Position numbers and translations under genes: made by a program | In this document: in pieces, positions 16,325-44,086 of the stretch | How the letters are laid out: every line of letters starts with the position of its first letter | Position numbering within the stretch: position 1 is the first letter of the stretch | The notes under the pieces: generated by a model | Seen by the model: the letters and a program-made list of their open reading frames with translations, nothing else | Told to the model about the DNA's origin: nothing | Databases searched by the model: none | Assembly (NCBI GenBank): GCA_048887225.1 | Contig: JBHLJY010000003.1 | Coordinates: 168,395 to 232,394 of the forward strand | Source: Candidatus Hodarchaeota archaeon | GTDB taxonomy: Archaea > Asgardarchaeota > Lokiarchaeia > Sigyniarchaeales > SOKP01 | Reading direction: 5' to 3' | DNA length: 64,000 bases

Positions 16325-17593
16325 TTGCCAGAATTAAAAGAAGTTGTAGTAGTTGATGGAGTTAGAACACCCATTGGGAAATCTGGATGGAAAGCTGCAA
16401 GCGGAGGCAAAAAGCCGGGAATTTTGTTTAATTCTACAGCTCACGAGATGTTAAAGACAGTAATTGAAAGATTGGTGGAAAATGTTAAAACTAAATCCAG
16501 TGCTTTTAATTCAGCTGAGATTGAGGATGTTGCTATAGGTTGTAGTGCCCAATATGGTGAACAAGCGGCAAATTTAGGAAGAATTGCGGTTCTTCTTGCT
16601 GAAAATATTCCAGACAACGATGTTCCTGGTAAAACTATTGATCGATACTGTAACGCTGGATTAGAAGCAATTAATAGTGAGGCTCAAGCTATTATGTGTG
16701 GAAATGGAGAGATAGCAATCGCTGGTGGTATTGAATTTATGAGCAAATACCCTTTAGGGAGTTCTCTTAATGCGACTATTATAAATGGCAGGAAGCACAT
16801 CTTTCATAGACAATTTATGAAAAAACAAAACATCATGGGTATGTCAGCTGAGATGGTTGCTGAAAAATATGGATTAACAAGAGAGGATTTAGACGATTTT
16901 GGTGCATTGTCCCAAAAAAAAGCAGTATTGGCTATGAGAGATATAGAGTGGTATAAAAAAAGAATCGCTCCTGTAACTATTGTCGAGAAAATTGAAGGAA
17001 AACGCGTTAAAAATACTTATAATAAAGATGAAACCCCAAGAGAGGAATTTGCCAACAATTTTGAAGTTGCTAGAGAAAAAATGAAGACTTTAAAACCAAG
17101 ATTTAAGCCTAAAGGTGGCATAGTTACAGCAGGCAATTCATCTGCTATTGTAGATGGGGCAGCAGCAGTTATGTTAATGTCTCAAGAAAAGGCTGATGAA
17201 TTAAGCATAAAACCTATGGCTAAAATACTCTCTTGTGCTGTTGCCGCTTCTGAACCGAGAATTATGTTATTAGGACCGATTCCAGCGCAAAAGAAAGCAC
17301 TTCGAAGGGCGGGAAATCTAAGGATGGATGATATGGACATAATAGAACCTAATGAAGCCTTTGCCTCACCTTGTCTTGCTTTTGCTAAGGAATTTGGATA
17401 TGCTTTTGATGATCCGAGAGTTAATCCCACAGGTGGAGGTATAAGCTTAGGTCATCCAATTGGAGCTTCTGGAGTGATTTATTTCTTGGAAATGGTCTGG
17501 GAAATGGTAAAAAAAAATCATCGATACGGAATTCAGACATTATGTGGTGGCGGCGGCGTAGGAATTGCAACTGTTGTAGAAAGAGAAAAATAA
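16325..17593 (+). CDS. acetyl-CoA C-acetyltransferase (thiolase)
   Basis: 422-aa ORF with a TTG start preceded by AGAGGGA. The active-site Cys context is DRYCNAGLEAI. The C-terminus has NEAFAS, GGGISLGHPIGASG and LCGGGGVGIA. Confidence 0.85.
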   Translation: MPELKEVVVVDGVRTPIGKSGWKAASGGKKPGILFNSTAHEMLKTVIERLVENVKTKSSAFNSAEIEDVAIGCSAQYGEQAANLGRIAVLLAENIPDNDVPGKTIDRYCNAGLEAINSEAQAIMCGNGEIAIAGGIEFMSKYPLGSSLNATIINGRKHIFHRQFMKKQNIMGMSAEMVAEKYGLTREDLDDFGALSQKKAVLAMRDIEWYKKRIAPVTIVEKIEGKRVKNTYNKDETPREEFANNFEVAREKMKTLKPRFKPKGGIVTAGNSSAIVDGAAAVMLMSQEKADELSIKPMAKILSCAVAASEPRIMLLGPIPAQKKALRRAGNLRMDDMDIIEPNEAFASPCLAFAKEFGYAFDDPRVNPTGGGISLGHPIGASGVIYFLEMVWEMVKKNHRYGIQTLCGGGGVGIATVVEREK

Positions 17594-18498: not shown

Positions 18499-18876
18499 TT
18501 AATCTGGAGTTAATTCGTCCAAGTCTGATAAATCCAATCCGGAATCTAGAGTCTCTGGAATTTCCGAAAGGAATTCGTCGAGAATTTCTTTCAATTCATC
18601 TCCAGATCTCTTTAATATAAGTCTAATTAACCCAATGTTTATATCAGGATCGGAAATTAAACATAATACTCCTTTTGGTCCGCAGCTGGCTGCAAATATT
18701 TTTCCACCTGAGAATTCGCTCGTAACTATATCTAAATCTCCTAATTCGAGATTTTTTCCTTGTTCTTCACTGGCACAGAATACTGCACTTGCAATAGCGC
18801 CAATTCCATCCACATCAGCTGGGAAATAGGAGAATTTCGACACGCTCGCGATAGTTAATCCCGTTCGATCAACCAA
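18499..18876 (-). CDS. Roadblock/LC7-like protein (track start TTG probably too far downstream)
   Basis: 125-aa ORF. The open frame continues upstream to 18972 and encodes the missing first helix and strand (FDNILSKIIKSESGIKKVILVDRTGLTIAS), with no ATG/GTG/TTG in that stretch. Confidence 0.6.
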   Translation of the reverse strand: MVDRTGLTIASVSKFSYFPADVDGIGAIASAVFCASEEQGKNLELGDLDIVTSEFSGGKIFAASCGPKGVLCLISDPDINIGLIRLILKRSGDELKEILDEFLSEIPETLDSGLDLSDLDELTPD

Positions 18877-20483: not shown

Positions 20484-20660
20484 TTTGACTCACACGAGGT
20501 TTTATAAATCGCAAATTCAATTTATCATAATTGAGTACTGATTACTATAATAATAATCACAATTTATTGTTTTATCTTTTTTGCTATTAAGTTAAAGATA
20601 AAAATTTTTTTACTAATTCTCTAAATTCAATTACTTTTATTGGTTTTGAGACATTTTTTA

Positions 20661-22208: not shown

Positions 22209-22235
22209 TTTTACTATACTCTATTATAAATAATT

Positions 22236-23894: not shown

Positions 23895-23945
23895 TGATCT
23901 ATATCCTTTTTTTTAATTTGATCTTTGATGTACTTTTTCTTAAAA

Positions 23946-26105: not shown

Positions 26106-26843
26106 TTATTTTCCCTTCCGCCTATTTCTACTAATATAATCTTTTAAATCTTCTAACAGTAATTCTTCGTTATATTCAGGCCAAAATTCGTTTCTAAATT
26201 TAAATTCTGCATATGAAGCATCCCATAAAAGAAAGCCAGAAATTCTAGCACCATCTTCCATTCCAGTGCGAATTATTAAGTCCACTTCAGGAAATTTGTT
26301 TGTATATAAATAGTCTTTAATAATTTTACGATCAATATTATTTGGATTAATATTATCTTTAATTATATTTTTTACTGCATCGCAAATCTCAGCTTGCCCA
26401 TCGTACATTATTAAAACATTCACGAAGGCACCATCAAAATCTTTCGTATATTCGATTAACTCGTCGATTTTATCACGCACATCTTGCGGCAATAACTCTA
26501 ATCTGCCAAGTACATTGAATTTAACTTTTTCTTCGGTAACAATCGGTTCGTTTCTTACTGTTTCTACAGCCAATTTTATTATCTTATATATATATTTTAA
26601 CTCATCTTTGGGTCGCTTTAAAGCATTTTCGAGAGATAGAGCATATAAAGTAAGATATTTAATTCCTGCTTCAAAGCAAGCTAACAAAATCTTCTTTACT
26701 ACTTCGTATCCCCTATAATGTCCTACATTTCTATGGACATTATTTATTCGTGCCCAACGACGGTTGCCATCTGGAATTAAGCCAATATGTTTTGGAATTT
26801 TATCATTCGGCAATTTCTGCAATTCTGTAAGTTCAGTTTCCAA
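26106..26843 (-). CDS. uppS: cis-prenyltransferase (undecaprenyl/di-trans,poly-cis polyprenyl diphosphate synthase)
   Basis: 245-aa ORF with HIGLIPDGNRRWA, LTLYALSLEN, IRTGME-type motifs and the C-terminus RNRRKGK. Confidence 0.85.
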   Translation of the reverse strand: METELTELQKLPNDKIPKHIGLIPDGNRRWARINNVHRNVGHYRGYEVVKKILLACFEAGIKYLTLYALSLENALKRPKDELKYIYKIIKLAVETVRNEPIVTEEKVKFNVLGRLELLPQDVRDKIDELIEYTKDFDGAFVNVLIMYDGQAEICDAVKNIIKDNINPNNIDRKIIKDYLYTNKFPEVDLIIRTGMEDGARISGFLLWDASYAEFKFRNEFWPEYNEELLLEDLKDYISRNRRKGK

Positions 26844-27266: not shown

Positions 27267-28904
27267 TTGATCTCTAATGAATACTTATTTACAAATATCG
27301 GTATTGATTCTGTAGGCTTCCATGCCCCGAGATATTATGTTGATTTAGAAGAGCTAGCCGTGAAGCGTCAAATCGATCCAGACAAGTTTAAAAAAGGTTT
27401 AATGTTAAGAGAAATGCGTTTTCCGGAAGTGGATGAAGATATTATATCCTTGGGCCTTAAGGCAGGTTATAATGCTTTGGCAAGAGGAAATATTTCTCCA
27501 AAAGACATTGATGCTGTTTTTGTCGGAACAGAAACAATGACCTATGCTGCAAAGTCGGTATCTAATATTTTTACTGAATTACTTGGCGTTTCGCCAAATT
27601 CAATGACACAAGATGTCTATAATACGTGTGCTGCCGGGACTCTTGCAATGCTAAACGCGATTTCTTTAATAGAAAAAGATATCATAAATAAAGCGCTGGT
27701 TATAAATGCTGATATTTCTTCATATGAATTAGGTAGTTTGGGCGAACCTACCCAAGGTTCGGGAGCGACAGCATTCGTTATTTCAAAAAATCCTCGAGTG
27801 GCCGCATTTAGTAAAAAATTTGGCAAGGTTTCTGGTAATGTTAATGATTTTTTTAGACCAGTAAACGAAATTAATGCGCAGGTGCCAAATGGTCAATATT
27901 CTGTTGATACTTATTTAAATTTCCAGTTAAGAGCTTACGATGATCTTATTAATAATGTAGGTGATTTTCATGCTGATTATTACACTTTTCATGCACCTTA
28001 TTCTAAATTACCAATAAAGTGTATGCAACAAATAATACTTAAAAGATGGGTAAAACATATTAACAATCTTCCAAAATTAGATGTAGATGAAATTAAGAGC
28101 TCACTTTTGAAAAAAATTGATAATTTTCTACATGATGTTTCTGTACTTCCAGGATATATATATTTGAAATTAAAAGAGAAAGGATACTCATCCTCTAGAT
28201 TAGAGAATTGGGCACATTGGGTAAATACTAATGTTAAAGCAAAATTACTTCCTCAATTAAGAGTACCTATGCATTTTGGAAACATGTATTCTGCTGCTTT
28301 ATGGGCCCAAATTATTTATATCCTTGAGAACCATGCTCGAGTAAGTGATACGATTTATTTTGGCTCATACGGTTCCGGTGCGACTTGTATATCAGGATTA
28401 TTAAAAGTAAGGCGAAAATTTAAATCTGTAGTAGAAAATGGACCAAAAATAGTAGATTATATTAATTATAAGCAAAGAAAAAGTGTCACAGAATACGAAC
28501 TAATAAAGTATGGCGTTCTAAAACCTCAAATCCATATTGGACGCGTGATTGAACATAAGTTAAATGAAAATAGATGTTTTACACTTCATTTTTGTAATAA
28601 GGGTTGTATTATCCCAAATATACCCGGATTAAATTATTGTCCTAATGGGCATTCTGGTTATCATAAAATGGTATTCCCACTCTATGCTGTTTTAAAGTCT
28701 AAACCACTATTAAATCCTAACATTAATGATCTTACCTATCTAAGAAAGGGATTAGTAAGAGTTTCACCAGAAGCGAGTATAGGGAATTCTTTAGAGTATG
28801 AATTGAGACGTGTGGTAATTGACGATGAGAATGCTCATAAAGCACTTAGTTCATTAAATTGGTCCCCTATGTATGTTCCGGTTCACAACATTTATTATAT
28901 TTAA
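27267..28904 (+). CDS. mvaS: hydroxymethylglutaryl-CoA synthase (MvaS-like) with insertions and a Cys-rich C-terminal extension
   Basis: 545-aa ORF with a TTG start. Motifs: IGIDSVGFHAPRYYVDLEELA, VGTETMTYAAKS (Glu), YNTCAAG (Cys), GEPTQGSGA, FHAPYSKL (His), GNMYSAAL, GSYGSGA. Confidence 0.8.
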   Translation: MISNEYLFTNIGIDSVGFHAPRYYVDLEELAVKRQIDPDKFKKGLMLREMRFPEVDEDIISLGLKAGYNALARGNISPKDIDAVFVGTETMTYAAKSVSNIFTELLGVSPNSMTQDVYNTCAAGTLAMLNAISLIEKDIINKALVINADISSYELGSLGEPTQGSGATAFVISKNPRVAAFSKKFGKVSGNVNDFFRPVNEINAQVPNGQYSVDTYLNFQLRAYDDLINNVGDFHADYYTFHAPYSKLPIKCMQQIILKRWVKHINNLPKLDVDEIKSSLLKKIDNFLHDVSVLPGYIYLKLKEKGYSSSRLENWAHWVNTNVKAKLLPQLRVPMHFGNMYSAALWAQIIYILENHARVSDTIYFGSYGSGATCISGLLKVRRKFKSVVENGPKIVDYINYKQRKSVTEYELIKYGVLKPQIHIGRVIEHKLNENRCFTLHFCNKGCIIPNIPGLNYCPNGHSGYHKMVFPLYAVLKSKPLLNPNINDLTYLRKGLVRVSPEASIGNSLEYELRRVVIDDENAHKALSSLNWSPMYVPVHNIYYI

Positions 28905-29125
28905 ATCAAAATAACATACTTTAGATTTTATTTGAAAATTTTCTAAAATTAAAACAAAATCCATTTTAATTTGGATAAATTTATAAAATCTTAAATAAAT
29001 CTTTATCATTTAGAAAAATTATTTGAGTTGAAAAGTGGATTTCTGGTTTTAAAATAGAAGATGAAATCTCATATGATGAATTTGGTCCTGAAAAGATCAT
29101 TATTTTAAGCGATCCTAAAGTAAAT

Positions 29126-30220
29126 ATGAAGGGCTTTTTAGTAATTGATAATTCTGCTTATGGAGTTCCAGCAGGAGGTATAAGATTTGCTCAAAACCTC
29201 ACTTTAAGCGAGATGACAAGATTAGCTCGTGCAATGTCTTTAAAATTTTCCTCCTATGGATTTCCAACGGGGGGTGCGAAATCGGGCTTAATTGGAAACC
29301 CGTTTGATAATAATCGTGATTTATTAATAACAAGCTTTGCTCTCTCACTAGCTCCATTTATTAAAGAAAAAATTTATTATCCTGGACCAGATATGGGCAC
29401 ATATGATTCGGATTTGGAAAGAATATTTAAAATTGCCGGTACGCCAGAGCTAGTTCCTCGGAAAATTGGATTAATGAAAGACGATATTCCGATTGAAGAA
29501 TTATTTACTGGATACGGGGTAGTTAATTGTCTAAAGACTGTCCTTCAATATAAAAAACCTAAAAATAATAAGCTAAAAATAATTTTAGAAGGCTTTGGTA
29601 AAGTTGGAACCAGTATTGCACTTTACTTAAGGGAATCAAATTACAAATTAACTGGAGTTTCAACAATAAAAGGTGCCATATACGATGACGATGGGCTCAA
29701 TATAGATCAATTATTAAGATTAAAGAATGAATTTGGAGGAGACGAATTAATTAATCATTATGAAAGTAAAAATGTAATTAAAATTCTAAAAGAAAAATTA
29801 TTTGAATTATCTTCAGATTATCCAACAGACGTCATAATCCCTGGAGCAAGACCAGATGTTATTAATAAAGATAATATTGATAAAATAAAAGCAAAATGGA
29901 TAATTCCTGCCGCTAACATACCATATCAAAAAGGTGTAATAGATATATTAGAAGAAAAAGGGATTGTCTGTTTTCCTGATTTTGTGTCCAATGCTGGAGA
30001 AATCTTAGCTATAGCTGTAATTAATAACCCAATAGGCGAAGCAGAGATTTTTAACTATATTAAAACGAAAATTTCAGAAAAAACTTTGGAAATATTGAAT
30101 GGCGCAAATGAACAAAAAATACCTCCTTTTCATTTTGCTGAAAACAAGGCTCTAAATGCTTTGAGAAAAAAAATAATAAAAATTAAAAGAAAAATTGAAA
30201 GAATAAATAGAAAATTTTAA
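29126..30220 (+). CDS. Glu/Leu/Phe/Val dehydrogenase-family amino-acid dehydrogenase
   Basis: 364-aa ORF with GGIRF, PTGGAKSG (catalytic Lys) and the Rossmann motif EGFGKVGTS. The conserved N-terminal segment (DEFGPEKIIILSDP) lies upstream of the first ATG, within the open frame from 29027. Confidence 0.7.
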   Translation: MKGFLVIDNSAYGVPAGGIRFAQNLTLSEMTRLARAMSLKFSSYGFPTGGAKSGLIGNPFDNNRDLLITSFALSLAPFIKEKIYYPGPDMGTYDSDLERIFKIAGTPELVPRKIGLMKDDIPIEELFTGYGVVNCLKTVLQYKKPKNNKLKIILEGFGKVGTSIALYLRESNYKLTGVSTIKGAIYDDDGLNIDQLLRLKNEFGGDELINHYESKNVIKILKEKLFELSSDYPTDVIIPGARPDVINKDNIDKIKAKWIIPAANIPYQKGVIDILEEKGIVCFPDFVSNAGEILAIAVINNPIGEAEIFNYIKTKISEKTLEILNGANEQKIPPFHFAENKALNALRKKIIKIKRKIERINRKF

Positions 30221-30224
30221 ATTT

Positions 30225-31514
30225 GTGGGTTTAATGGGTAAAATCAATTCAGAAATTTCTGGTTTCTATAAATTGTCTATTGAAGAACGTCATAAGATTT
30301 TATCCAACCTTTTTGATTTAACTCAAGAAGAAATAAAATTATTACGTAATTTTGGTTATTTTACCCAAACTCAGCTGGATACATTGATAGAAAATGTAGT
30401 TGGAAGTTTTCAATTACCAATGGGTATAGCATGCAATTTTAAAGTAAATCATAAAGATTATTTTATCCCTATGGTAATAGAAGAACCTTCTGTCGTTGCC
30501 GCTGCTTCAAATGCAGCTAAATTCGCTAGAAAACATGGTGGTTTCCATTCTGGAAAAATTAAATCAGTTATGATTTCTCAAATTCAAATTACTCAATTAG
30601 AAGATATAAATGCCGCTAAAGAAAAATTAATAGAGCATAAAGAAAAAATCTTAAATATTGCTAATAATCAAGATCCAATCTTAAAAAAATTAGGCGGTGG
30701 AGCATTTGATTTTGAATTTAGAGAATTGGATACAAAAAAGGGAAAGATGCTAATTCTCCACTTATTAGTCGATGTTTTAGATGCTATGGGAGCTAATTTA
30801 GTTAATACTATGGCAGAAGCAGTAAGTCCTTATATTGAAGAATTATGTGGTGGAAAAATCTATCTTCGAATTGTATCTAATTTAGCAGCCAAGCGCATTG
30901 CGAGGAGTAAAGCTGTTTTTGATAAGGAATTATTAGGCGGAGAAGAAGTGGTTGAAGGCATTTTAAATGCTTATGAATTTGCCTTAGAAGATCCCTTTAG
31001 AGCAACTACTCATAATAAAGGAATAATGAATGGGATTATCGCATTAACTTTAGCTACTGGTAATGATGCACGCGCTATTGAAGCAGGTGCTCATGCCTAT
31101 GCTTCTTTAAGTGGAAAATATAAACCTTTAACTAAGTTTGATGTTGATAAAGAAGGAAATTTAATTGGAGAAATAGAAATTCCACTAGCGCTGGGAATAA
31201 TTGGAGGAATGACGAAGGTCCATCCAATGGCACGATTAACTCTAAAGATTTTAAATGTTGAAAGTGCTGAAGAGTTGTCTCAAGTTGCTGCCGCTGTTGG
31301 TCTAGCCCAAAATGTTGCTGCCTTAAGAGCATTATCTGCTGAAGGTATACAGAAAGGTCATATGGCACTTCACTCACGAAATATCGCTAAAATAGCTGGA
31401 GTACCTGACAATTTAATAGAAGAAGTTGCTAAAAAATTAGTTGAAGATAAAAAAATTCGCATAGATTACGCCAAAGAGATTTTAAATAATCTTTCAAAAA
31501 AGAATCAAAAATAA
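30225..31514 (+). CDS. mvaA: class II HMG-CoA reductase
   Basis: 429-aa ORF with SGFYKLSIEERHKIL, EEPSVVAAAS, DAMGANLVNT, ATTHNKGIMNGI, ATGNDARAIEAGAHAYA and VGLAQNVAALRALSAEGIQKGHMALH. It matches the bacterial-type MvaA pattern closely. Confidence 0.9.
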   Translation: MGLMGKINSEISGFYKLSIEERHKILSNLFDLTQEEIKLLRNFGYFTQTQLDTLIENVVGSFQLPMGIACNFKVNHKDYFIPMVIEEPSVVAAASNAAKFARKHGGFHSGKIKSVMISQIQITQLEDINAAKEKLIEHKEKILNIANNQDPILKKLGGGAFDFEFRELDTKKGKMLILHLLVDVLDAMGANLVNTMAEAVSPYIEELCGGKIYLRIVSNLAAKRIARSKAVFDKELLGGEEVVEGILNAYEFALEDPFRATTHNKGIMNGIIALTLATGNDARAIEAGAHAYASLSGKYKPLTKFDVDKEGNLIGEIEIPLALGIIGGMTKVHPMARLTLKILNVESAEELSQVAAAVGLAQNVAALRALSAEGIQKGHMALHSRNIAKIAGVPDNLIEEVAKKLVEDKKIRIDYAKEILNNLSKKNQK

Positions 31515-31526
31515 TGTATTATCCAA

Positions 31527-32078
31527 TTATATTTCTCCCCATCTCTTTATTCCAATATCTATCCCAATTTGATCAAGTATCCTCCCAACAGTATAATTAA
31601 CTAATTCATCTACGCTTTCTGGCTTTGTATAATAAGAGGGGATTGGCGGAGCAATAATAACTCCTAGTTTTGCGAGTTTAAGCATATTTCCAAGATGTAT
31701 TACACTTAAAGGGCTCTCTCTCACAATAAGTATAAGTTTTCTTTTTTCTTTTATCGTCACATCTGCAGCCCTTGTAATTAAGTTATCTGCATAACCATTT
31801 GCGATGGCAGCTAAAGTTTTCATTGTACAGGGGACAATAACCATAGCATCAATTTTATGTGAACCACTTGCAGGAGGGGCAGCTAAATCATCAGCTTCAT
31901 AATATTTTGTGGAAAATTGATGTAAATCCGCAATCTTATATTCCGTCTCAGCTTCAATCACTTTCTCTGCAGCTTTAGATATAATAAGTTCGGTATTAGT
32001 TCCCTTATCTTTTAGAATTTTAAGTAATTTAACTGCTATTATGATTCCTGATGCACCCGTAATCGCAATTATTATCAA
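31527..32078 (-). CDS. ubiX: flavin prenyltransferase UbiX (prenyl-FMN synthase)
   Basis: 183-aa ORF with a TTG start preceded by GGTGA. Motifs: IAITGASGIIIAVKLL, MVIVPCTMKTLAAIANGYADNLITRAADV, RESPL. Confidence 0.85.
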   Translation of the reverse strand: MIIIAITGASGIIIAVKLLKILKDKGTNTELIISKAAEKVIEAETEYKIADLHQFSTKYYEADDLAAPPASGSHKIDAMVIVPCTMKTLAAIANGYADNLITRAADVTIKEKRKLILIVRESPLSVIHLGNMLKLAKLGVIIAPPIPSYYTKPESVDELVNYTVGRILDQIGIDIGIKRWGEI

Positions 32079-32162
32079 ATTGAATCACCGATGTTAATAC
32101 TATAATTTCGAAAAGATTTTTTATTTTCATTTATGTCTTTTTTTTTTTACGGTGCGACTCAA

Positions 32163-32189
32163 CAAACCTACCTTCTATTATTAGGTTTG
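32163..32189. other. 8-bp-stem hairpin/inverted repeat CAAACCTA-(11 nt)-TAGGTTTG in the ubiX / UbiD-like divergent intergenic region
   Basis: Read directly from the sequence. It lies in a locally GC-richer patch of a 429-nt divergent promoter region. A direct repeat TTTACGGT is also present at ~32147 and ~32217. Confidence 0.25.
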
Positions 32190-32507
32190 GAAACTATGGC
32201 TTGTTGTCATCAAATCTTTACGGTCTTTGGCGCTAGTGCCAATTTATTTTTATTGATACTTTCCTTGATTATTTTTATTAGATTAGCAGAATAGATCTAC
32301 TATTAATCACTATAATCAATATTCTTTATTAAAATCTATTATTATAATAAGATAATTCTGCTTGAGAATAATTAAAATTAGATTTTACAAGCATTATTTA
32401 AATTAATGGATTAATTGATATTATTCAGAATCTTTCTAATAATCGTATCATTTTCATAATAATAGCTAAAAAAAAAATTAAAGAAATAAATTTTTGAGAT
32501 AGCATTT

Positions 32508-33809
32508 ATGGGATTTAGAGAATATTTAGAAAAAATTGATAAGAAAGGACTTCTTCGAAAGGTAAACGTTGAAGTTTCGAAGATATTAGAGATCTCTGGT
32601 ATTTTAAAGGAGAGTGAACCAACCCCCGTAATGTTCAATAATGTTAAAGAATCCGAATTCCGATTGGTTGGCAATGTATTCTGTACTAAGAATGTAATTG
32701 CTTCATATTTTGGTGTGAATCCCACAGATCTCATACCAATGCTTTCTAGTGCAATTGCACAACGCTCAGAACCAGAAGTCATATCAGACGCTCCTTGTCA
32801 AGAAATAATAGAATCAAGCGTAGATTTAGAGAAATTACCAATTTTGTTTCATTGCGAAAAGGATGGCGGAAATTATATTAGTTCCGCGGTTGTTATCACT
32901 AGGGATCCTGATTATGGACAAAACATGGATTTTCATAGAGCTATGCAGTTTTCCAAAGAAAAGTTTGCTACTCGAATAGTTAGAGGACGTCATTTTCATA
33001 AATTTTTAGAAAAAAATGGTGAACTAGATGTTGCTTTTTGTATAGGGAATACCCCTAACGTTCTAATTGCGGGAGCAACTTCTGTGGATATTGGAGTTGA
33101 TGAATTATATATTGCAAATGCTTTAGAGCCAATTAAAGTTGTTAAAGCAAATTCAGTTGATCTCTTAATTCCTGCAGAAGCCGAATTTATCTTAGAAGGA
33201 CGGGTCTATATGGAAGAAAAACATGCTGAGGGTCCTTTTGTCGATTTAACAGAAACATATGATATTGTAAGAGAAGAACCTGTTTTTGAAGTCAAAAGAA
33301 TCACTCATAGAAAGGATGCAATTTGGCAAGCTTTATTACCTGGTGCGCTTGAGCATAAAATATTGATGGGAATGCCACGAGAACCAACCATTTTCAATAA
33401 AGTGAATGAAGCGGGAGTTCAATGCTTAGATGTCAATATAAATCCCGGAGGTTGCTCATGGTTGCATGCAATTGTACAAATTGATAAAAAATCAGAAGAA
33501 GATGGTGAAAAAGCTATTAATGGTGTTTTTGCTGGCCATAGTAGTTGTAAACACGTGTTTATTGTAGATAAGGATATTGATATTTATGACCCATTATCTG
33601 TGGAATGGGCTATGGCAACTCGATTTCAAGGTGATGTCAGAATGGTTATTAAAGATAAAGAACCGGGAAGCAGTTTAGATCCTAGCGCAGAGCCGGGAAC
33701 AAAAATGACAACTAAAATTGGATTTGATTTAACAAAACCACTCATAGCTAAAGCAAAGAGCTTTGATAAATCGGATTTCCCAAAAGTAGACATGAACAAA
33801 TATTTTTAA
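32508..33809 (+). CDS. UbiD-family decarboxylase, likely trans-anhydromevalonate 5-phosphate decarboxylase
   Basis: 433-aa ORF of UbiD-like length and pattern. The specific function is inferred from its neighbours: divergent ubiX and the aconitase-X subunits immediately downstream. Confidence 0.7.
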   Translation: MGFREYLEKIDKKGLLRKVNVEVSKILEISGILKESEPTPVMFNNVKESEFRLVGNVFCTKNVIASYFGVNPTDLIPMLSSAIAQRSEPEVISDAPCQEIIESSVDLEKLPILFHCEKDGGNYISSAVVITRDPDYGQNMDFHRAMQFSKEKFATRIVRGRHFHKFLEKNGELDVAFCIGNTPNVLIAGATSVDIGVDELYIANALEPIKVVKANSVDLLIPAEAEFILEGRVYMEEKHAEGPFVDLTETYDIVREEPVFEVKRITHRKDAIWQALLPGALEHKILMGMPREPTIFNKVNEAGVQCLDVNINPGGCSWLHAIVQIDKKSEEDGEKAINGVFAGHSSCKHVFIVDKDIDIYDPLSVEWAMATRFQGDVRMVIKDKEPGSSLDPSAEPGTKMTTKIGFDLTKPLIAKAKSFDKSDFPKVDMNKYF

Positions 33810-33819
33810 TATATAAGAG

Positions 33820-35022
33820 TTGATAATAATTAAGTTAGAACTAGAAGAGAAAGATATGCTGGAAGGGAAGCATGGAAAAGCTGCACAAAAATCGATGGAG
33901 ATATTAACAACATTAGGCGAAATATTTGATGCTGAATGTATGGTTGACGTTCATAGTGTTCAGATAGCAGGAGTTTCCTATGCTAATCTTGGCGAAGCGG
34001 GGTTGGAATTTCTAAACGAAATGGCTGAAGATGGGAATGTTAGAGTTTTAACAACTTTAAATCCAGCAGGAATGGATCGCCAAAATTGGCAAGCATTAGG
34101 AATAGATGAAGAATTTGCTAAAAATCAGAATAGCGCCATAGATGCCTTTGCTAAGATGGGAATAATTACAACATGTTCTTGTACACCATATCTAATTGGA
34201 AACACACCTCACTATGGACAACATATTGCTTGGGCTGAAAGTAGTGCTGTTTGTTATTCTAACTCAGTTATTGGAGCTCGAACAAATCGCGAGGGGGGAC
34301 CAAGCGCATTAGCAGCAGCTTTAACTGGCAAAACGCCTAAATACGGTTACCATATAGATGAAAATCGTCATGGTCAAATCTTAGTTAAAATAAATGCTCC
34401 AGTTAAAGGCACTGACGAATTTGGAGTATTAGGAAAAATAATTGGAGACAAATTAGTTGAATTAGGAAAAAAAATACCCCATATTACGGGAATTCCTTCC
34501 GCTACTGTTGAAGAACTCAAGTCTTTTTGTGCTTCCATTGCTACGTATGGTGGAACAGCATTATTCCACATGGAACAAATAACTCCGGAGTATAAAGAAT
34601 ATCCTAAACCAAGTGATGTTGTGTTTGAAATTAATCAAGAAGATTTAGATAATACTCGTGCTGAACTTATAGACGACGATCTTGAAATAGATTTTGTAAG
34701 TATTGGTTGTCCTCACGCTTCAATTCACGAAATTGCAGAAATAGCAAGGTTATTAAGAGGAAAAAAAGTAAAGAAAGAATTTTGGATTACTACTGCTCGA
34801 CCTACAAAAAAAATCGCAGATGAAGCTGGTTATTCTAAAATTATTGAAGATGCTGGAGCAAAATTCGCAGCGGACACTTGCTGTGTTGTAGCTCCAATTA
34901 AAGGACGCTTCAAGGGAATCATGGTTGATTCAGCAAAAGCGTGTTATTACGGGCGCGCAAAGAATAATTTTAAAGTAAAAATTGGTACAATCGAAAAATG
35001 TGTTGAGGAGTCCATTAAATGA
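33820..35022 (+). CDS. aconitase X-type phosphomevalonate dehydratase, large subunit (DUF521)
   Basis: 400-aa ORF with DMLEGKHGKAAQKSMEIL at the N-terminus and Cys-containing segments (TTCSCTPY, IGCPHAS, DTCCVV). A 4-nt ATGA overlap joins it to the small subunit. Confidence 0.75.
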   Translation: MIIIKLELEEKDMLEGKHGKAAQKSMEILTTLGEIFDAECMVDVHSVQIAGVSYANLGEAGLEFLNEMAEDGNVRVLTTLNPAGMDRQNWQALGIDEEFAKNQNSAIDAFAKMGIITTCSCTPYLIGNTPHYGQHIAWAESSAVCYSNSVIGARTNREGGPSALAAALTGKTPKYGYHIDENRHGQILVKINAPVKGTDEFGVLGKIIGDKLVELGKKIPHITGIPSATVEELKSFCASIATYGGTALFHMEQITPEYKEYPKPSDVVFEINQEDLDNTRAELIDDDLEIDFVSIGCPHASIHEIAEIARLLRGKKVKKEFWITTARPTKKIADEAGYSKIIEDAGAKFAADTCCVVAPIKGRFKGIMVDSAKACYYGRAKNNFKVKIGTIEKCVEESIK

Positions 35023-35408
35023 AATTAGAAGGAAGAAAAATCTATAAAGGAATTGCTGAGGCAGAAGCGATTGTAACGAAAGATGGAATATCTTTTTATG
35101 GTGGCGTTGACCCTGATACTGGCAAAGTTGTTGAGGTTGGACATGAACTTGAAGGTCAAACCATAACAGGAAAAGTTTTAGTCTTTCCTACTGGTAAAGG
35201 TTCGACTGTAGGATCATACACTATGTATAGAATGAAAAAAAATAATACGGCTCCAGTAGCAATCGTAAATGAACAAATAGATACGATCATAGCAGTAGGT
35301 TGTATAATAAGTGAAATTCCCTGTGTAGATAAAATTGATATTAATTATATTAAAACTGGACAAAAAGTTATTGTCAATGGTTCAGAAGGTACTGTGGAGG
35401 TGGCATAA
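35019..35408 (+). CDS. aconitase X-type phosphomevalonate dehydratase, small subunit (DUF126)
   Basis: 129-aa ORF with GISFYGGVDPDTGKVV, ITGKVLVFPTGKGSTVGS and APVAIVN. Confidence 0.75.
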   Translation: MKLEGRKIYKGIAEAEAIVTKDGISFYGGVDPDTGKVVEVGHELEGQTITGKVLVFPTGKGSTVGSYTMYRMKKNNTAPVAIVNEQIDTIIAVGCIISEIPCVDKIDINYIKTGQKVIVNGSEGTVEVA

Positions 35409-35459
35409 ACGGGAACTGGCAAAGGATATGGTAAGACAATCTTATTTGGAGAACATTTT

Positions 35460-36344
35460 GTGGTTTTTGGTTTTCCGGCTATTGCATCAGCATTAGGCTC
35501 CTATACAACTGCAGATGTTAAAGTCGTTGAAGGAAAAAGCTGGACTGTCAATGATCAGAGACCTGCTACGCCCGGCTATAAAAAAAAGAAATATAGTGAG
35601 GCAATGCAATCAATTAAGAATATAATCGAGCATTTAAAAATAGATACGGAGAGTCAAAAACTTGAAATAACTTTCGCCGGAGATTTAATTGCTGCTAGTG
35701 GAGTTGGTGCTTCTGCCGCTCAATGCACATCTTTAACTCGTGCCTTAAACGATAGTTTTAATTTAAAGTTAGATGATGAAAAGATAAATGAAGCTGCGTA
35801 TGAAGGAGAGAGGGCCTACCATGGAACACCATCCGGTATTGATAACACGGCTTCAACTTATGGTGGATTGATTTGGTTTGTGAAAAACTTAAGTGGGGGA
35901 AAAAATACAATGGAGCTCCTTCAATCACCAAAAAATATACCATTAGTAATCGCAAATTCAGGAATCACGGCCTCAACAACAGAAATAGTTGCTGAAGTCC
36001 GGCGCTTAAAGGAAGCTAACCCAGAAAAATTTGAAAAAATATTTAATGAATATAAGGCATTATCAGAAAAAGCAAAAAAAGCCTTACTTGAAGGAGACAT
36101 CGACACTATAGGAAATTTAATGAATCAAAACCACAAATTACTTCAAAAAATCACCGTTTCAGGGGATATAAATGACAAATTAGTTGATATAGCACTGAAA
36201 AATGGAGCATTAGGTGCTAAAATGACGGGAACAGGGCGGGGTGGTTTGATTATTGCTTTAGCAAAAAACGAAGCAATACAAGAAAATATTGCCAAATCTA
36301 TAGAAAAAGAAGGATATGATGCCTGGAGAACATTGATTGGTTGA
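35460..36344 (+). CDS. mvk: mevalonate kinase (true N-terminus almost certainly upstream, within 35409-35459)
   Basis: GHMP kinase motifs AASGVGASAAQC, GTPSGIDN and KMTGTGRGG. The essential N-terminal motif GKTILFGEHFVV is encoded just upstream of the track's GTG start. Confidence 0.8.
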   Translation: MVFGFPAIASALGSYTTADVKVVEGKSWTVNDQRPATPGYKKKKYSEAMQSIKNIIEHLKIDTESQKLEITFAGDLIAASGVGASAAQCTSLTRALNDSFNLKLDDEKINEAAYEGERAYHGTPSGIDNTASTYGGLIWFVKNLSGGKNTMELLQSPKNIPLVIANSGITASTTEIVAEVRRLKEANPEKFEKIFNEYKALSEKAKKALLEGDIDTIGNLMNQNHKLLQKITVSGDINDKLVDIALKNGALGAKMTGTGRGGLIIALAKNEAIQENIAKSIEKEGYDAWRTLIG

Positions 36345-38250
36345 GTGTGAATTAAAATTGAAAAGTAGTAATGAAATAATTCTGTTAAAGTTAGGTGGAA
36401 GTTTATTAACCGATAAAAATAAATCTTTTTATATTAGAGAAAATGTTGTAAAAAGCGCAGTTCAACAAATAATTGATGCTAATGAAAAATTAATCTTAAT
36501 TCATGGTGGAGGTTCATTTGGCCATCCTCTCGCTAAAAAGTATAGCATTTCGAAAGGACTTGATATATCCATTCCAAATCAAATTCTTGGACTTGCTGAA
36601 ACTCACGAAGCAATGAACAAATTAAACACCTATATAATTAACAGATTTCTTGAAAAAAACAGTCCTGCTATATCAATTCAAGCTTCAAGTATTTTTATAA
36701 AAGATTCTAAGAAAATTTCCACTCAATCCATTGATGTCATTGAGGCAGCTCTTGATATTGGAGTAATTCCCGTTTTATACGGCGATATAATCCTTGATAA
36801 ACAAGATTCATTTTCAATTATTTCAGGAGATCGTATAATTTTGGAATTATGTAAGAACTTACAAAAATTTACAGTTTCAAAAGTTATTTTTACGATTGAA
36901 AAAGATGGTATTTACATTAAGGATAAAAAAGAAAATATCAAATTGGCTTTGGAACTTAATCATAAGGAATTAGACAACATTCGCCTTGCTGAATTAGATC
37001 AAAAAATAGATGTTACTGGTGGGATAGAAGGAAAAATTAATTCAATTAAAGAAATTTCTAAACTAAAAATTCCTGTTCAAATTATAAATGGATTAAAAGA
37101 AAAATTTATATTTAAGGCTTTAAAAGGTTTAGATTTAAGATGTACCAATATCAAAATTAGTACTGTAAAAGCAGAAATAGAAGAAATTCGTGATAGAAAG
37201 CTAGATCATTTAAGAATTCCTATTGAATACAATGTACAGCATTCAGAAAATTATTTTAAATATATTAAGTTAATTCACAATCCTCTTCCAGAAATGGATT
37301 ATGACGAAATTGATCTCTCTATTCAATTTTTTAATAAGGAAGTCTCTGCTCCCATTTGTATTGCTGCGATAACTGGCGGCCACCCCATTTCTAAAGAAAT
37401 TAATCGAATTTTGGCTGAAGCTGCCGAAAAAGAAAAAATTATAATGAGTGTAGGAAGCCAACGTGCTGGATTAGTTGATCCTACTCTGATAGATTCCTTT
37501 AATATCGTAAGAAATGTAGCACCTAGTATTCCCATTATTGGAAATATAGGTATAGGTCAATTAAGTGATCCCAATTTTAATTTAGAGGATTTTAATAAAT
37601 GTATTAAGATGATAAATGCTGATGCCATGGCTATTCATTTTAACGCGTTACACGAATTGGTCCAAGATAAAGGAAATCGCTCTTATAAATATTTCCGAGA
37701 TAATTTCCAAAAAATAAGAGCATCAACTAATACTCCTATAATTGCAAAAGAGGTAGGTGCTGGTTTTAATCAAGAACTTGCCTTAAAACTCAATAATCTC
37801 GGATTTGATGGTTTTGATGTTGGAGGTGCTGGCGGTACTAGTTTTGCTGCTGTTGAATCTCACCGTAATTTCAATTTCAGTGAAAATTTTACTAGAAATC
37901 CCGCAGAAATATTTAGAGAATGGGGCATCCCTACTCCTGTAAGTGTATATTATATTAGAAAAGTCACAAAAAAATTAATAATTGCAACTGGCGGGTTAAG
38001 AACAGGAATAGATATTGCTAAATGTATTTCTTTAGGGGCAGATATTGGTGGATTCGCTTATAAATTTCTTTTATCCTCGTGGAAAGATTATAAAAATAAC
38101 TCAATTTCTCACACTATCAAAGAAATTAGAACATTAAAAAACGAATTGCGCTCTTGTCTATGGTTAATGAACTTAAAAAATATTATTGATTTAAAAGGCA
38201 ACATAAACAAAAGAGTAATTCTTGGTAAATTAAATCAATGGTTAAGTTAA
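36337..38250 (+). CDS. fusion protein: isopentenyl phosphate kinase (N-terminal) + type-2 (FMN-dependent) IPP isomerase (C-terminal)
   Basis: 637-aa ORF. The IPK part (aa 1-~265) has LKLGGSLLTDK, HGGGSFGH and DVTGGIEGK. The IDI-2 part (aa ~285-637) has RKLDHLRIP, PICIAAITGG, GSQRA, AKEVGAG, GGAGGTSFAAVE and ATGGLRTGIDIAKCISLGA. The TTG start overlaps the mvk stop by 8 nt. Confidence 0.8.
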   Translation: MVECELKLKSSNEIILLKLGGSLLTDKNKSFYIRENVVKSAVQQIIDANEKLILIHGGGSFGHPLAKKYSISKGLDISIPNQILGLAETHEAMNKLNTYIINRFLEKNSPAISIQASSIFIKDSKKISTQSIDVIEAALDIGVIPVLYGDIILDKQDSFSIISGDRIILELCKNLQKFTVSKVIFTIEKDGIYIKDKKENIKLALELNHKELDNIRLAELDQKIDVTGGIEGKINSIKEISKLKIPVQIINGLKEKFIFKALKGLDLRCTNIKISTVKAEIEEIRDRKLDHLRIPIEYNVQHSENYFKYIKLIHNPLPEMDYDEIDLSIQFFNKEVSAPICIAAITGGHPISKEINRILAEAAEKEKIIMSVGSQRAGLVDPTLIDSFNIVRNVAPSIPIIGNIGIGQLSDPNFNLEDFNKCIKMINADAMAIHFNALHELVQDKGNRSYKYFRDNFQKIRASTNTPIIAKEVGAGFNQELALKLNNLGFDGFDVGGAGGTSFAAVESHRNFNFSENFTRNPAEIFREWGIPTPVSVYYIRKVTKKLIIATGGLRTGIDIAKCISLGADIGGFAYKFLLSSWKDYKNNSISHTIKEIRTLKNELRSCLWLMNLKNIIDLKGNINKRVILGKLNQWLS

Positions 38251-41885: not shown

Positions 41886-42953
41886 TTAAAATCTCCTTTC
41901 TGCGACAAAATCTAATAGACTATCAAAAAATTCTAATTCAGATTGATTGATGACGGATTTTAATTTATTCAAAGAGGATCTGGCTTCTTGTACAAAAGAA
42001 TTTGCCAAAGTCCTACATGAATTTACTACATCTGCTTCAACGAAAAACTCTTTAACTTCTTGAACATCGTTACTTGTCATATCTTGTTTCTCAATTAATT
42101 TATTAAGCCGATTTTTTTTCTTGTTTTCCAATTTATTATATGCCTCTATTAATAGGCAAGTTTTTTTCCCTTCTCTTATATCTCCTTCAGTTGGTTTACC
42201 AGTTATTTTTTCGTCGCCAAAGGTTCCCAAAATATCATCAATAATTTGAAATATAATTCCTAGGTTTATACCATAAGTAGATAAGAACTGTAAATATTTA
42301 GCATCTACATTTGAATAATTTGCTCCTATTAAAATCGATTTTTCTAATAGAGCTCCTGTTTTAAGTGAAATCATTTTAATATAATCTTGAATATTTAATT
42401 TTTTTTGACTTACCATGTCTATTTCGATAAGGACTCCATCACTGATTTCTTTAAAAACTTCTTCATAGTAATTTATTGCTTTAAGATTTAGCTTGTGTTC
42501 AAATTCATTGAAGATATATGCTTCTAATCCCATGAAAAATGCTGTGTCGCCACCTATTATTCCAATATTTGTACCAAAATCTTTAGCAACTATTTTTTTT
42601 AAATCATATTTTTCGTAATATTTCCTAAATCTATAATGAAAAGCAGGTTTTCCTCTTCTGAAATCGTCTTTATCTATGATATCGTCATGAATTAAAGATG
42701 CGTTGTGTAAAAACTCTATTCCAACACTAGGGATTACAATTCTTTCATCGGTTTTCTTTTTGAATGAATTGTATGTAGCAATGCATAACAAAGGACGGAT
42801 TCTTTTGCCCCCTGATAAAAAATAATCCTTTAGTGTTGAATAATAGTCTTTAAGAAATTGATTTTTAACACTTTCCAACTTTCGGTCATAAATTAATTTT
42901 ATTGCGTCGTTTATTTTAGGTTTGTAATTTTTAATATATTCGGCAAATTTCAT
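41886..42953 (-). CDS. idsA: trans-polyprenyl (geranylgeranyl) diphosphate synthase
   Basis: 355-aa ORF with the first Asp-rich motif LIHDDIIDKDDFRRGKP and the second FQIIDDILGTFGDE. Confidence 0.85.
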   Translation of the reverse strand: MKFAEYIKNYKPKINDAIKLIYDRKLESVKNQFLKDYYSTLKDYFLSGGKRIRPLLCIATYNSFKKKTDERIVIPSVGIEFLHNASLIHDDIIDKDDFRRGKPAFHYRFRKYYEKYDLKKIVAKDFGTNIGIIGGDTAFFMGLEAYIFNEFEHKLNLKAINYYEEVFKEISDGVLIEIDMVSQKKLNIQDYIKMISLKTGALLEKSILIGANYSNVDAKYLQFLSTYGINLGIIFQIIDDILGTFGDEKITGKPTEGDIREGKKTCLLIEAYNKLENKKKNRLNKLIEKQDMTSNDVQEVKEFFVEADVVNSCRTLANSFVQEARSSLNKLKSVINQSELEFFDSLLDFVAERRF

Positions 42954-42964
42954 AAGATAATACC

Positions 42965-44086
42965 TTAATCTAATAGTTTCTTCATTATAATCTCAGAACT
43001 TCGATGCTTTTCCCACAACGACAAGAACTTTTTTAAGTTCTCGTCATTTTGAAATATTTTATCACGTGCTACTCTTTTAGCCTTTAACACTTTAAGAAAT
43101 TTTCTATCTAATAATCTCTCGTAGTGAATACCTAATTTATCTAATTTATCTCTTTTTTCACATGTCTTAATTGATTCAATAGCATATAGTCCAGACATCA
43201 TAGCGTAAGGAATTCCTTTACCTGAGATAGGATCGACGATCCCGCCAGCGTCACCCACAGCAAATACATTATTATCGTAAAGTTTTGGTCTTAGACCAAC
43301 AGGAATTAAATGCGGTTTGAAAATTTCTGTTTTTGAGTTAACTAATGCTTCTTTTACAAATGGAAGTGAAGTAAATTTTTTGAATTCATTTCTTGAATTC
43401 TTAATTAAATTAATTTGATTGCCCCACCCTACTGTTATAGTTTCAGTTTTTGGAAATAACCAAGCATATCCAACAGGGATAAGATTTTCAATACCAAAAA
43501 ACAAATGAACAGTATCAACTCCTAAAATCTTATCAATATACGATTTCGTTGTTTTCATTTCTTTGGTAATTGTTAAAATTATGTTCTCTTTTTTAAAATA
43601 AGGCCAATTTAATTTTTTTAATGTTTGAGAGGTAACACCATCAGCCGCAATTACATAGTTAGCTATATATACATCATTACTAGTTGTAATTTGGTAAAAA
43701 TCATCAAGTTTATCAATATTAATTAATGGTTCTTTTTCTTTTAGTATTGCTCCACTCTCAACAGCCATATCTGTTAAGAATTTATCAAAAATATTTCGCC
43801 AAATAACTGCACCTTTTCCTTTTTTAGAATAGTCTTCTCCGTCTACATGGTGCAATTCTAAAGATTCAATAACCCTTGCTATTTTCTCTTCTGGATAATT
43901 AACTTCTTCTACTAATTCCCATGCCATTGCCCCGCCACATGCTTTATATCTTCCATTTCCTCCAATAAGTTCTTTTTCAAGTAGTAATGTTTTATATCCA
44001 TTTTCAGCTGCAGCTTTCGCAGCAAATGATCCGCCAGGACCAGCACCAACAACAATTATATCAAATATGTTGTCAATTTTTTCCAT
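42965..44086 (-). CDS. geranylgeranyl reductase family flavoprotein (digeranylgeranylglycerophospholipid reductase-like)
   Basis: 373-aa ORF with the FAD motif DIIVVGAGPGGSFAAKAAAENG, ACGG and VGDAGGIVDPISGKGI. Confidence 0.85.
   Translation of the reverse strand: MEKIDNIFDIIVVGAGPGGSFAAKAAAENGYKTLLLEKELIGGNGRYKACGGAMAWELVEEVNYPEEKIARVIESLELHHVDGEDYSKKGKGAVIWRNIFDKFLTDMAVESGAILKEKEPLINIDKLDDFYQITTSNDVYIANYVIAADGVTSQTLKKLNWPYFKKENIILTITKEMKTTKSYIDKILGVDTVHLFFGIENLIPVGYAWLFPKTETITVGWGNQINLIKNSRNEFKKFTSLPFVKEALVNSKTEIFKPHLIPVGLRPKLYDNNVFAVGDAGGIVDPISGKGIPYAMMSGLYAIESIKTCEKRDKLDKLGIHYERLLDRKFLKVLKAKRVARDKIFQNDENLKKFLSLWEKHRSSEIIMKKLLD

Follow-up and report, generated by a model that had tools for sequence, protein, structure and literature searches.

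The window analysed here is a 64,000-nucleotide stretch (contig C3:168395-232394) of the 3.27-Mb genome of a Candidatus Hodarchaeota archaeon, assembled in 49 contigs and 98% complete; it carries, at positions 27267 to 38250, a mevalonate pathway locus that begins with the synthase of 3-hydroxy-3-methylglutaryl-CoA (HMGCS). With families assigned by Pfam and NCBIfam models and bit scores judged against the curated cut-offs, the open reading frame (ORF) coordinates, strands and family calls of this locus are confirmed, and they coincide exactly with the gene order and positions given in an earlier sequence-only reading, including the flanking cis-prenyltransferase, GGPP synthase and geranylgeranyl reductase (PF01255, PF00348 and TIGR02032, respectively). 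Taken together, the evidence set out below makes this, in our judgment probably, the single housekeeping mevalonate locus of a Loki-type (Promethearchaeota) Asgard archaeon, in which HMGCS ends in a diverged DUF35 tail. The features are as follows.

27267..28904, plus strand: long-form HMGCS, 545 aa, TTG start (PF01154, PF08540)
28572..28901, plus strand: HMGCS C-terminal tail, residues ~436-545, probable diverged DUF35-like Zn-ribbon plus beta-barrel module
29126..30220, plus strand: glutamate dehydrogenase (GDH)-like Glu/Leu/Phe/Val (ELFV-family) dehydrogenase, 364 aa (PF00208, PF02812)
30225..31514, plus strand: class II HMG-CoA reductase (HMGR), GTG start (TIGR00532 492.4 bits, cut-off 259.95)
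31527..32078, minus strand: UbiX flavin prenyltransferase, providing prenylated FMN (prFMN) for UbiD (TIGR00421 258 bits, cut-off 109)
32508..33809, plus strand: UbiD-family decarboxylase (TIGR00148 367 bits, cut-off 245)
33820..35022, plus strand: aconitase X large subunit (AcnX-L), phosphomevalonate dehydratase type (PF04412 494 bits)
35019..35408, plus strand: aconitase X small (swivel) subunit (AcnX-S) (PF01989 120 bits; NF003046 178 bits, cut-off 163)
35409..36344, plus strand: mevalonate kinase (MVK), first canonical start GTG at 35460 (TIGR00549 213 bits, cut-off 163)
36337..38250, plus strand: isopentenyl phosphate kinase-type 2 isopentenyl diphosphate isomerase (IPK-IDI2) fusion, 637 aa (NF040647 221 bits, residues 15-272, cut-off 120; TIGR02151 343 bits, residues 287-621)
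26106..26843, minus strand: cis-prenyltransferase (cisPT, UppS family), divergent from HMGCS (PF01255 210 bits; TIGR00055 200 bits)
41886..42953, minus strand: short-chain trans-prenyl (GGPP-type) diphosphate synthase (PF00348 190 bits; NF041003 180 bits, below cut-off)
42965..44086, minus strand: geranylgeranyl reductase family flavoprotein (TIGR02032 177 bits, cut-off 159)
16325..17593, plus strand: type II thiolase, context only, outside the conserved cluster (TIGR01930 340 bits)

The tail of HMGCS contains four residues, C443, C447, C458 and H462, that are invariant in 25 sequences. An AlphaFold2 (AF2) model that was unusable when based on 25 close sequences (pLDDT 47) reached a pLDDT of 90.5 and a pTM of 0.92 with 133; here the tail is predicted confidently as a beta-rich element with strands at residues 437-538, and the modelled core fits PDB chain 6esq_I with a root-mean-square deviation of 1.6 Å. 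Foldseek against the PDB and a wider structure search, both made with the whole model, returned lists filled by the thiolase-fold core and are uninformative on the tail, for which a search of the ESM Atlas also gave no usable match.

A connection to DUF35 is suggested by HMGCS proteins of intermediate character. The archaeal-type HMGCS P0310 ends in a DUF35 that Pfam verifies (PF12172 36 bits, PF01796 37 bits), and P0141, from a Bathyarchaeota metagenome-assembled genome, aligns with P0310 from end to end, tail included (E 8e-64). Compared by hhalign with a profile built from 37 long-form tails, the isolated P0141 tail gives 95.1% (E 3e-8, 99 columns), and set against the 12 stand-alone DUF35 proteins of the genome it gives 91.7% (E 8e-7, 84 columns); moreover, the tail of a second intermediate, P0287, matches PDB chain 6esq_E ("Pfam DUF35"), which is the DUF35 subunit in the solved complex of thiolase and HMGCS, over chain residues 16-128 of 130 (E 2e-6), while no DUF35 chain occurs among the best 60 of the 96 PDB matches of P0141. 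The tails themselves form a graded series, from CxxC...CxxC with the end motif "GLIHYG", via GLIHW.P.Y.P, to CxxxC...CxxxH with "GLLNWSPIYIP". Since the tail thus resembles a diverged DUF35 through intermediates, the scaffold that appeared to be missing is probably fused to HMGCS; the earlier statement that no DUF35 scaffold gene is visible is true of the genes of the window, whereas the C-terminus of HMGCS carries a probable DUF35-like module and 12 DUF35 matches lie elsewhere in the genome. We accordingly hold it likely that the tail is a diverged DUF35 module (PF12172 Zn ribbon plus PF01796 OB fold) fused in cis. In an even sample of 201 Asgard genomes, used both for this and for the HMGR survey, the window tail as query found matches in 41, all of them from the order of the window (37 of 40 in family f1, 3 of 3 in family f2), and none in the other 157; a full-text literature search of limited coverage returned no published description of such a tail.

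The enzyme scores below the cut-off of every curated HMGCS model: 215 bits with bacterial TIGR01835 (cut-off 360.35), where the best-matching segment is limited to profile positions 1-248 of 382, 179.4 bits with archaeal PRK04262 (cut-off 244), 149.6 bits with archaeal TIGR00748 (cut-off 353.35), 123 bits with haloarchaeal NF041302 (cut-off 800) and 121 bits with eukaryotic TIGR01833 (cut-off 286). Sequence scores against the PDB are 129-141 bits for bacterial MvaS, 122 for archaeal 6esq_I and 75-96 for eukaryotic enzymes. E89, C121, H242 and N339 are invariant in the 133-sequence HMGCS alignment, and a catalytic Glu-Cys-His-Asn tetrad of HMGCS is named in PMC12960953. The best 120 relatives have lengths of 518-559 aa and identities of 66% or more, and those with names are labelled Promethearchaeota/Lokiarchaeota or otherwise Asgard, Promethearchaeota being the NCBI name for the Loki-type phylum within the Asgard kingdom. 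Among 1.84 billion cluster representatives, long forms (538-607 aa) reach down to 36% identity, at which point scores fall from 285 to at most 190 bits. Eighty representatives were typed by NCBIfam, 11 being long forms or close relatives and 69 of ordinary length; the best type of the latter is TIGR01835 in 64 cases, the halo-type in four and the archaeal type in one, and this one, P0141, is the best-scoring ordinary-length relative of the window HMGCS.

Phylogenies of the upper-pathway enzymes had been proposed in the sequence-only reading as a check on their origin, and that of HMGCS was run as a quick IQ-TREE analysis (LG+C20; 361 core columns, tail excluded; 117 of the 133 rows, with 16 near-duplicate relatives dropped). 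On one side of a branch whose SH-aLRT support is 100% stand 27 archaeal-type sequences, 21 long forms and three intermediates, and on the other 48 MvaS-type, four halo-type and 14 untyped sequences; this placement of the long forms on the archaeal side speaks against a chimeric origin, although the tree is unrooted. The GEPTQG motif is common to MvaS and the archaeal-side intermediates (Bathyarchaeota and others) and is changed only in the archaeal crown (LEYTA.SGA). On a fair reading of these sequences, the Loki-type HMGCS would be a distinct, deep, lineage-specific long form that is not nested in bacterial MvaS.

The lower half of the pathway was claimed to be archaeal on the basis of AcnX, UbiD/UbiX and IPK, and both the family models and a comparison with phosphomevalonate dehydratase (PMDh) support this. 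AcnX-L scores 340 bits against the archaeal enzyme TkPMDh (7cnr_A) and 200 bits against type I (proline-dehydratase) AcnX, and its C121, C297 and C355 align with three cysteines of 7cnr_A; the [4Fe-4S] ligands of ApPMDh are given in PMC10040528 as Cys122, Cys297 and Cys356. We infer the substrate of AcnX, as we do the cofactor of HMGR, and the UbiD would be the trans-anhydromevalonate-5-phosphate decarboxylase, its substrate being assigned from gene context only. HMGCS, AcnX and UbiD are each present in a single copy in the 98%-complete genome, where the only match to the mevalonate/phosphomevalonate decarboxylase model (MVD/PMD, TIGR01240) is the MVK of the cluster (23.6 bits). The trans-anhydromevalonate route is the only mevalonate route in this genome.

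That the reductase belongs to class II, as had been claimed, is clear from its scores of 492.4 bits with TIGR00532 and 51.6 bits with the class I model TIGR00533. Genes for class II HMGR occur in 163 of the 201 sampled Asgard genomes (79 of the 86 of high quality; 38 of the 40 others from the window's family), and class I HMGR occurs in 23 of the 201, mostly in families without class II. Class II HMGR is thus the Asgard norm and already published: passages of Hoshino & Gaucher 2018 (PMC6107057) place HMGR-II in Asgard, DPANN and TACK archaea, and a class II HMGR (HMGR2) tree in Zhu et al. 2024 includes Asgard archaea. The genome also holds a second, class I-like HMGR (C22:6835-8037; TIGR00533 364.7 bits, below the cut-off of 441.8), located directly after the large and small subunits of methylmalonyl-CoA mutase and MeaB, with genes for acyl-CoA dehydrogenase and EtfAB close by; such low-scoring class I-like genes were found in only three other genomes of the sample.

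The dehydrogenase in front of HMGR has its best PDB matches among glutamate dehydrogenases (104 bits, vs 51 bits for leucine dehydrogenase), and its family, typically of 395-401 aa and 54-58% identical, bears Asgard labels wherever named. The gene is a native Asgard one that was relocated, and no foreign import. It lies between HMGCS and HMGR in one of the 55 evaluable loci described below (L013) and in one short locus (L014), and is a lineage-specific insert before HMGR. That it supplies reduced nicotinamide cofactor to the pathway is speculation. A role in feeding HMG-CoA from leucine was considered and rejected, the enzyme being GDH-like by the scores above and its family Asgard-labelled.

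Conservation of the cluster was assessed in 55 evaluable loci, defined as having at least 9 kb downstream of HMGCS, and the cisPT was judged in 59. All seven core genes (HMGR2, UbiD, AcnX-L, AcnX-S, MVK, IPK and IDI2) are present in 47 of the 55 loci, 44 of which have the order seen in the window; UbiX is found in 48 at variable positions, class II HMGR lies inside the biosynthetic cluster in 53, and a GGPP-type synthase falls within the flank in 23. The cisPT is divergent and immediately upstream of HMGCS in 52 of 59 loci, and the IPK and IDI2 halves share one frame in 27 of 52 related loci. In 14 loci a spacer of 1.24-1.41 kb separates HMGCS from HMGR2; in the two that were examined (L044:11674-12885 and L054:11818-13029) it encodes a 403-aa MVD-like GHMP protein, so that in these two genomes a decarboxylase-type gene appears to exist alongside the AcnX/UbiD branch.

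Outside the group, about 9 kb on each side of HMGR2 was compared. Of 17 HMGR2 loci from other Asgard orders, 14 have no other cluster gene, two have a weak GGPPS-like match only and one has an HMGCS-thiolase-HMGR trio, and one family of the same order retains only HMGR2, MVK, IPK and cisPT near HMGR2. The compact cluster is therefore a trait of the window's family, common within it and not general. The sequence-only reading, which took the clustering to be unusual and proposed a comparison of synteny, is borne out as regards the other orders, where the cluster was not seen around HMGR2 in the 17 loci compared; within the family of the window the arrangement is commonplace. That mevalonate genes "usually form gene clusters" is remarked in passing by Zhu et al. 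2024.

An Asgard-wide distribution of the long HMGCS and the cluster, as submitter labels would have it, was considered and dropped, since in the sampled genomes the tail did not occur outside the order of the window and the HMGR2 loci compared from other orders showed no cluster. Very similar loci bear Thor-, Hermod-, Hod- and Odinarchaeota labels, which are at odds with the GTDB-based finding that the tailed HMGCS is confined to one order. The 80 loci recovered with HMGCS have Asgard-type titles except one (L071, Candidatus Nanopelagicaceae), which contains a full Loki-type cluster with an HMGCS 66% identical to that of the window and probably represents a mis-binned contig. Upstream of the cisPT, four ORFs (19173-25874, minus strand; 436, 515, 552 and 642 aa) are syntenic with the cluster in most related loci; none reaches a Pfam curated cut-off, three having sub-cut-off matches and one having no match.

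Several of the junctions described by the sequence-only reading are as tight as it stated, namely the 4-nt gap between dehydrogenase and HMGR (TAA attt GTG), the 10-nt gap between UbiD and AcnX-L, the ATGA overlap of AcnX-L and AcnX-S (35019-35022) and the 8-nt overlap of MVK and IPK-IDI2 (TTG...TGA, 36337-36344). The spacing is looser elsewhere, with 221 nt between HMGCS and the dehydrogenase, 12 nt between the convergent HMGR and UbiX, and 429 nt between the divergent UbiX and UbiD. These wide gaps and the divergent UbiX therefore imply at least three to four transcription units by spacing, and not one tight operon.

The 51-nt gap that had been placed before MVK (35409-35459) is in fact coding and carries the conserved MVK N-terminus TGTGKGYGKTILFGEHF. 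The motif GKGYGKTILFGEH is encoded by 35409-35459 in frame straight after the TAA of AcnX-S, resulting in a 0-nt stop/start abutment with ACG at the start position; no canonical MVK start precedes the conserved N-terminal motif, and GTG 35460 falls inside it. In 18 related loci with an abutting AcnX-S/MVK junction the start is ATG in 15, TTG in one, GTG in one and ACG in one (L013), which suggests near-cognate initiation or termination-reinitiation at the ACG. Threonine at the MVK start position is also seen in four intron-bearing loci (L073, L077, L079 and L091). In 16 related loci, though not in the window, a conserved insert of 31 nt, or 30 nt in L050, splits the MVK gene precisely where the GAA codon for Glu meets the CAT codon for His in GKTILFGE/HFVVYG, shifting the frame (for example L044:17153-17242 and L041:8591-8680). 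With an inner hairpin and complementary flanking exon stretches, this insert looks like a tRNA-type mini-intron in the mRNA.

The thiolase at 16325 is of type II, as had been stated, and lies 9.7 kb upstream of HMGCS; of the seven ORFs of at least 100 aa between the two, six are on the opposite strand, and none matches a lipid-pathway family. It is one of five type II thiolases in the genome, which also has no fewer than seven archaeal thiolases of the SCP2 type that neighbour DUF35 genes; candidate partners for HMGCS are thus available away from the cluster. Its best match to NF053570, the model for the thiolase of the Methanothermococcus complex, is C1:14894-16159 (420 bits, below the cut-off of 600); at C1:14450-16159 this archaeal-type thiolase adjoins a Pfam-verified DUF35 gene, and the pair is divergent from a MaoC-type dehydratase, a layout resembling the ketothiolase/DUF35 fatty-acid module described in bioRxiv 10.1101/2024.07.05.601840. 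The window further contains genes of eukaryotic-signature type, for a small GTPase of the Ras/Roc family that is extended N-terminally by about 150 aa (14403-15356, minus strand) and for a Roadblock/LC7 protein (18499-18876, minus strand).

On the reading that we favour, acetoacetyl-CoA from a thiolase encoded elsewhere would be condensed by the long HMGCS to HMG-CoA, which class II HMGR would reduce to mevalonate. After phosphorylation by MVK, two-subunit aconitase X would convert mevalonate 5-phosphate to trans-anhydromevalonate 5-phosphate, and the prFMN-dependent UbiD, with its cofactor made via UbiX, would decarboxylate this to isopentenyl phosphate, from which the IPK-IDI2 fusion would produce isopentenyl diphosphate (IPP) and dimethylallyl diphosphate (DMAPP) for consumption by the flanking prenyltransferases and reductase. 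The GDH-like gene, native to Asgard archaea, would have reached its place before HMGR by a relocation confined to this lineage. Whether the tail of HMGCS still docks or assembles a thiolase is a tentative hypothesis, to which we give somewhat less than an even chance.

A chimeric pathway, in which HMGCS, HMGR and thiolase are bacterial imports or eukaryote-like enzymes grafted onto an archaeal lower half, is decidedly improbable, and the non-archaeal upper half perceived by the sequence-only reading is largely unsupported. Class II HMGR and type II thiolase fit such a graft, but the former is the rule in Asgard genomes and published for Asgard, DPANN and TACK archaea, and the latter lies outside the conserved cluster. 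The similarity behind the MvaS/eukaryote-type signatures of HMGCS is real: TIGR01835 is its best model and S. aureus MvaS its best PDB match (141 bits, vs 122 for archaeal 6esq), 64 of the 69 nearest ordinary-length representatives type as TIGR01835, and GEPTQG is shared with MvaS. An import is nevertheless not supported, as HMGCS passes no curated model, falls on the archaeal side of the fully supported split, has an archaeal-type protein from Bathyarchaeota as best ordinary-length relative, shares GEPTQG also with archaeal-side intermediates and bears a probable DUF35-derived tail. It is even less likely that class II HMGR and the GDH-like enzyme are catabolic or redox-balancing and the class I-like HMGR on C22 biosynthetic. 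The name "degradative" that NCBIfam gives to TIGR00532, the presence of a second HMGR and the 4-nt coupling to an amino-acid dehydrogenase would suit this arrangement; however, the dehydrogenase is missing from that slot in 54 of 55 loci, class II is the sole HMGR found in most relatives and lies in the biosynthetic cluster almost throughout, and the C22 gene, which scores below its cut-off and has genes for methylmalonyl-CoA mutase and acyl-CoA dehydrogenase around it, occurs in only two of 40 other genomes of the family.

As for the tail, it could be an unrelated zinc-knuckle/beta-barrel that is DUF35-like by convergence and serves oligomerisation, regulation or nucleic-acid binding instead of docking, which we regard as unlikely. 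Such a tail would give no direct sequence signal to DUF35, and none is seen; its ligand spacing differs and the fourth ligand is His, the genome has many stand-alone DUF35 genes that adjoin thiolases of their own, and the ESM Atlas offers no usable match. On the other hand, the P0141 tail matches both the Asgard tails and true DUF35 over 84-99 columns, that is, over the whole module; the tail occupies the same C-terminal position as in the verified HMGCS-DUF35 fusions P0310 and P0287, and the end motif changes by degrees along the series of tails. Several observations weigh against a housekeeping locus with a DUF35-tailed HMGCS. Even with E values of up to 10 allowed, HMGCS residues 391-545 matched no Pfam family, DUF35 included; hhalign run directly between Asgard tails and DUF35 proteins gave 0.15-3.8%, and the ligand pattern is CxxxC...CxxxH where DUF35 has CxxC...CxxC, so that the proposed link is transitive, via intermediates only. 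HMGCS has slightly higher NCBIfam and PDB scores with bacterial MvaS (215 and 141 bits) than with archaeal enzymes (179 and 122), and in the quick tree, which is unrooted and holds no verified eukaryotic sequences, short branches attach the long forms close to the central node, at much the same distance from the archaeal crown (0.67) as from the bacterial side (0.69). HMGCS has no adjoining thiolase gene in the window, and the thiolase/DUF35 pair on C1 may be a fatty-acid-type module and not the mevalonate entry pair, as suggested by its own adjoining DUF35 and the nearby MaoC dehydratase. Finally, the C22 HMGR could share or take over the reductase step.

One further possibility is that the long HMGCS represents an evolutionary intermediate, standing between the three-protein thiolase/HMGCS/DUF35 machine of archaea and the HMGCS that is free-standing in bacteria and eukaryotes. 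This is a long shot, suggested by the fact that it joins the tree between the two crowns, keeps the GEPTQG loop (which would then be ancestral) and combines a long helical insert like that of halo- or eukaryote-like enzymes with a scaffold in cis. If so, free-standing HMGCS would have arisen by loss of the tail from a tailed form, and Asgard archaea would have a two-component channelling complex (thiolase plus HMGCS-DUF35), with a bearing on the eukaryotic inheritance of the isoprenoid entry steps.

In summary, with the pathway chemistry, the class II HMGR of Asgard archaea and the clustering of mevalonate genes already published, the locus is largely ordinary, and its contribution lies in the entry enzyme: in one Asgard order, HMGCS appears to have absorbed its DUF35 scaffold, and its divergence is such that standard annotation recognises it as neither archaeal nor bacterial and misses the scaffold altogether. 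This case cautions against taking "bacterial-like" motifs in Asgard lipid genes as evidence that genes were transferred or that the membrane pathway is chimeric. The thiolase step is thermodynamically uphill, and other archaea encode the DUF35 scaffold as a separate gene; the tailed HMGCS offers a concrete, testable object for asking what drives this step in those archaea that are most closely related to eukaryotes.

Among known systems, the modified mevalonate pathway via trans-anhydromevalonate 5-phosphate of Aeropyrum pernix and Methanosarcina mazei (in which PMDh is a type IIb aconitase X and the decarboxylase AMPD belongs to the UbiD family, followed by IPK) is matched here by MVK, a two-subunit AcnX with three Fe-S cysteines, UbiD with UbiX, IPK and IDI2, and by the finding of no ATP-dependent decarboxylase in the genome. 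Unlike in those organisms, the genes of the predicted pathway are packed into one locus with HMGCS and HMGR, and IPK is fused to IDI2. The reductase is a clear member of the known archaeal class II HMGRs, its only distinctive point being the lineage-specific translational coupling to the GDH-like gene. In the Methanothermococcus complex, reportedly solved by Vögeli in 2018, the DUF35 scaffold is said to hold thiolase and HMGCS together; here no thiolase adjoins HMGCS, and the putative scaffold is instead fused to its C-terminus, diverged beyond direct recognition and with CxxxC...CxxxH ligands. The long form also differs from archaeal-type HMGCS by a core insert of 77 residues against 12, and from bacterial MvaS (S. 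aureus 1TVZ, E. faecalis 1X9E) by scoring below the TIGR01835 cut-off, by a 100%-supported branch and by its tail, since MvaS has no Zn-ribbon/OB module and a median of 20 residues in this region, where the long forms have 109.

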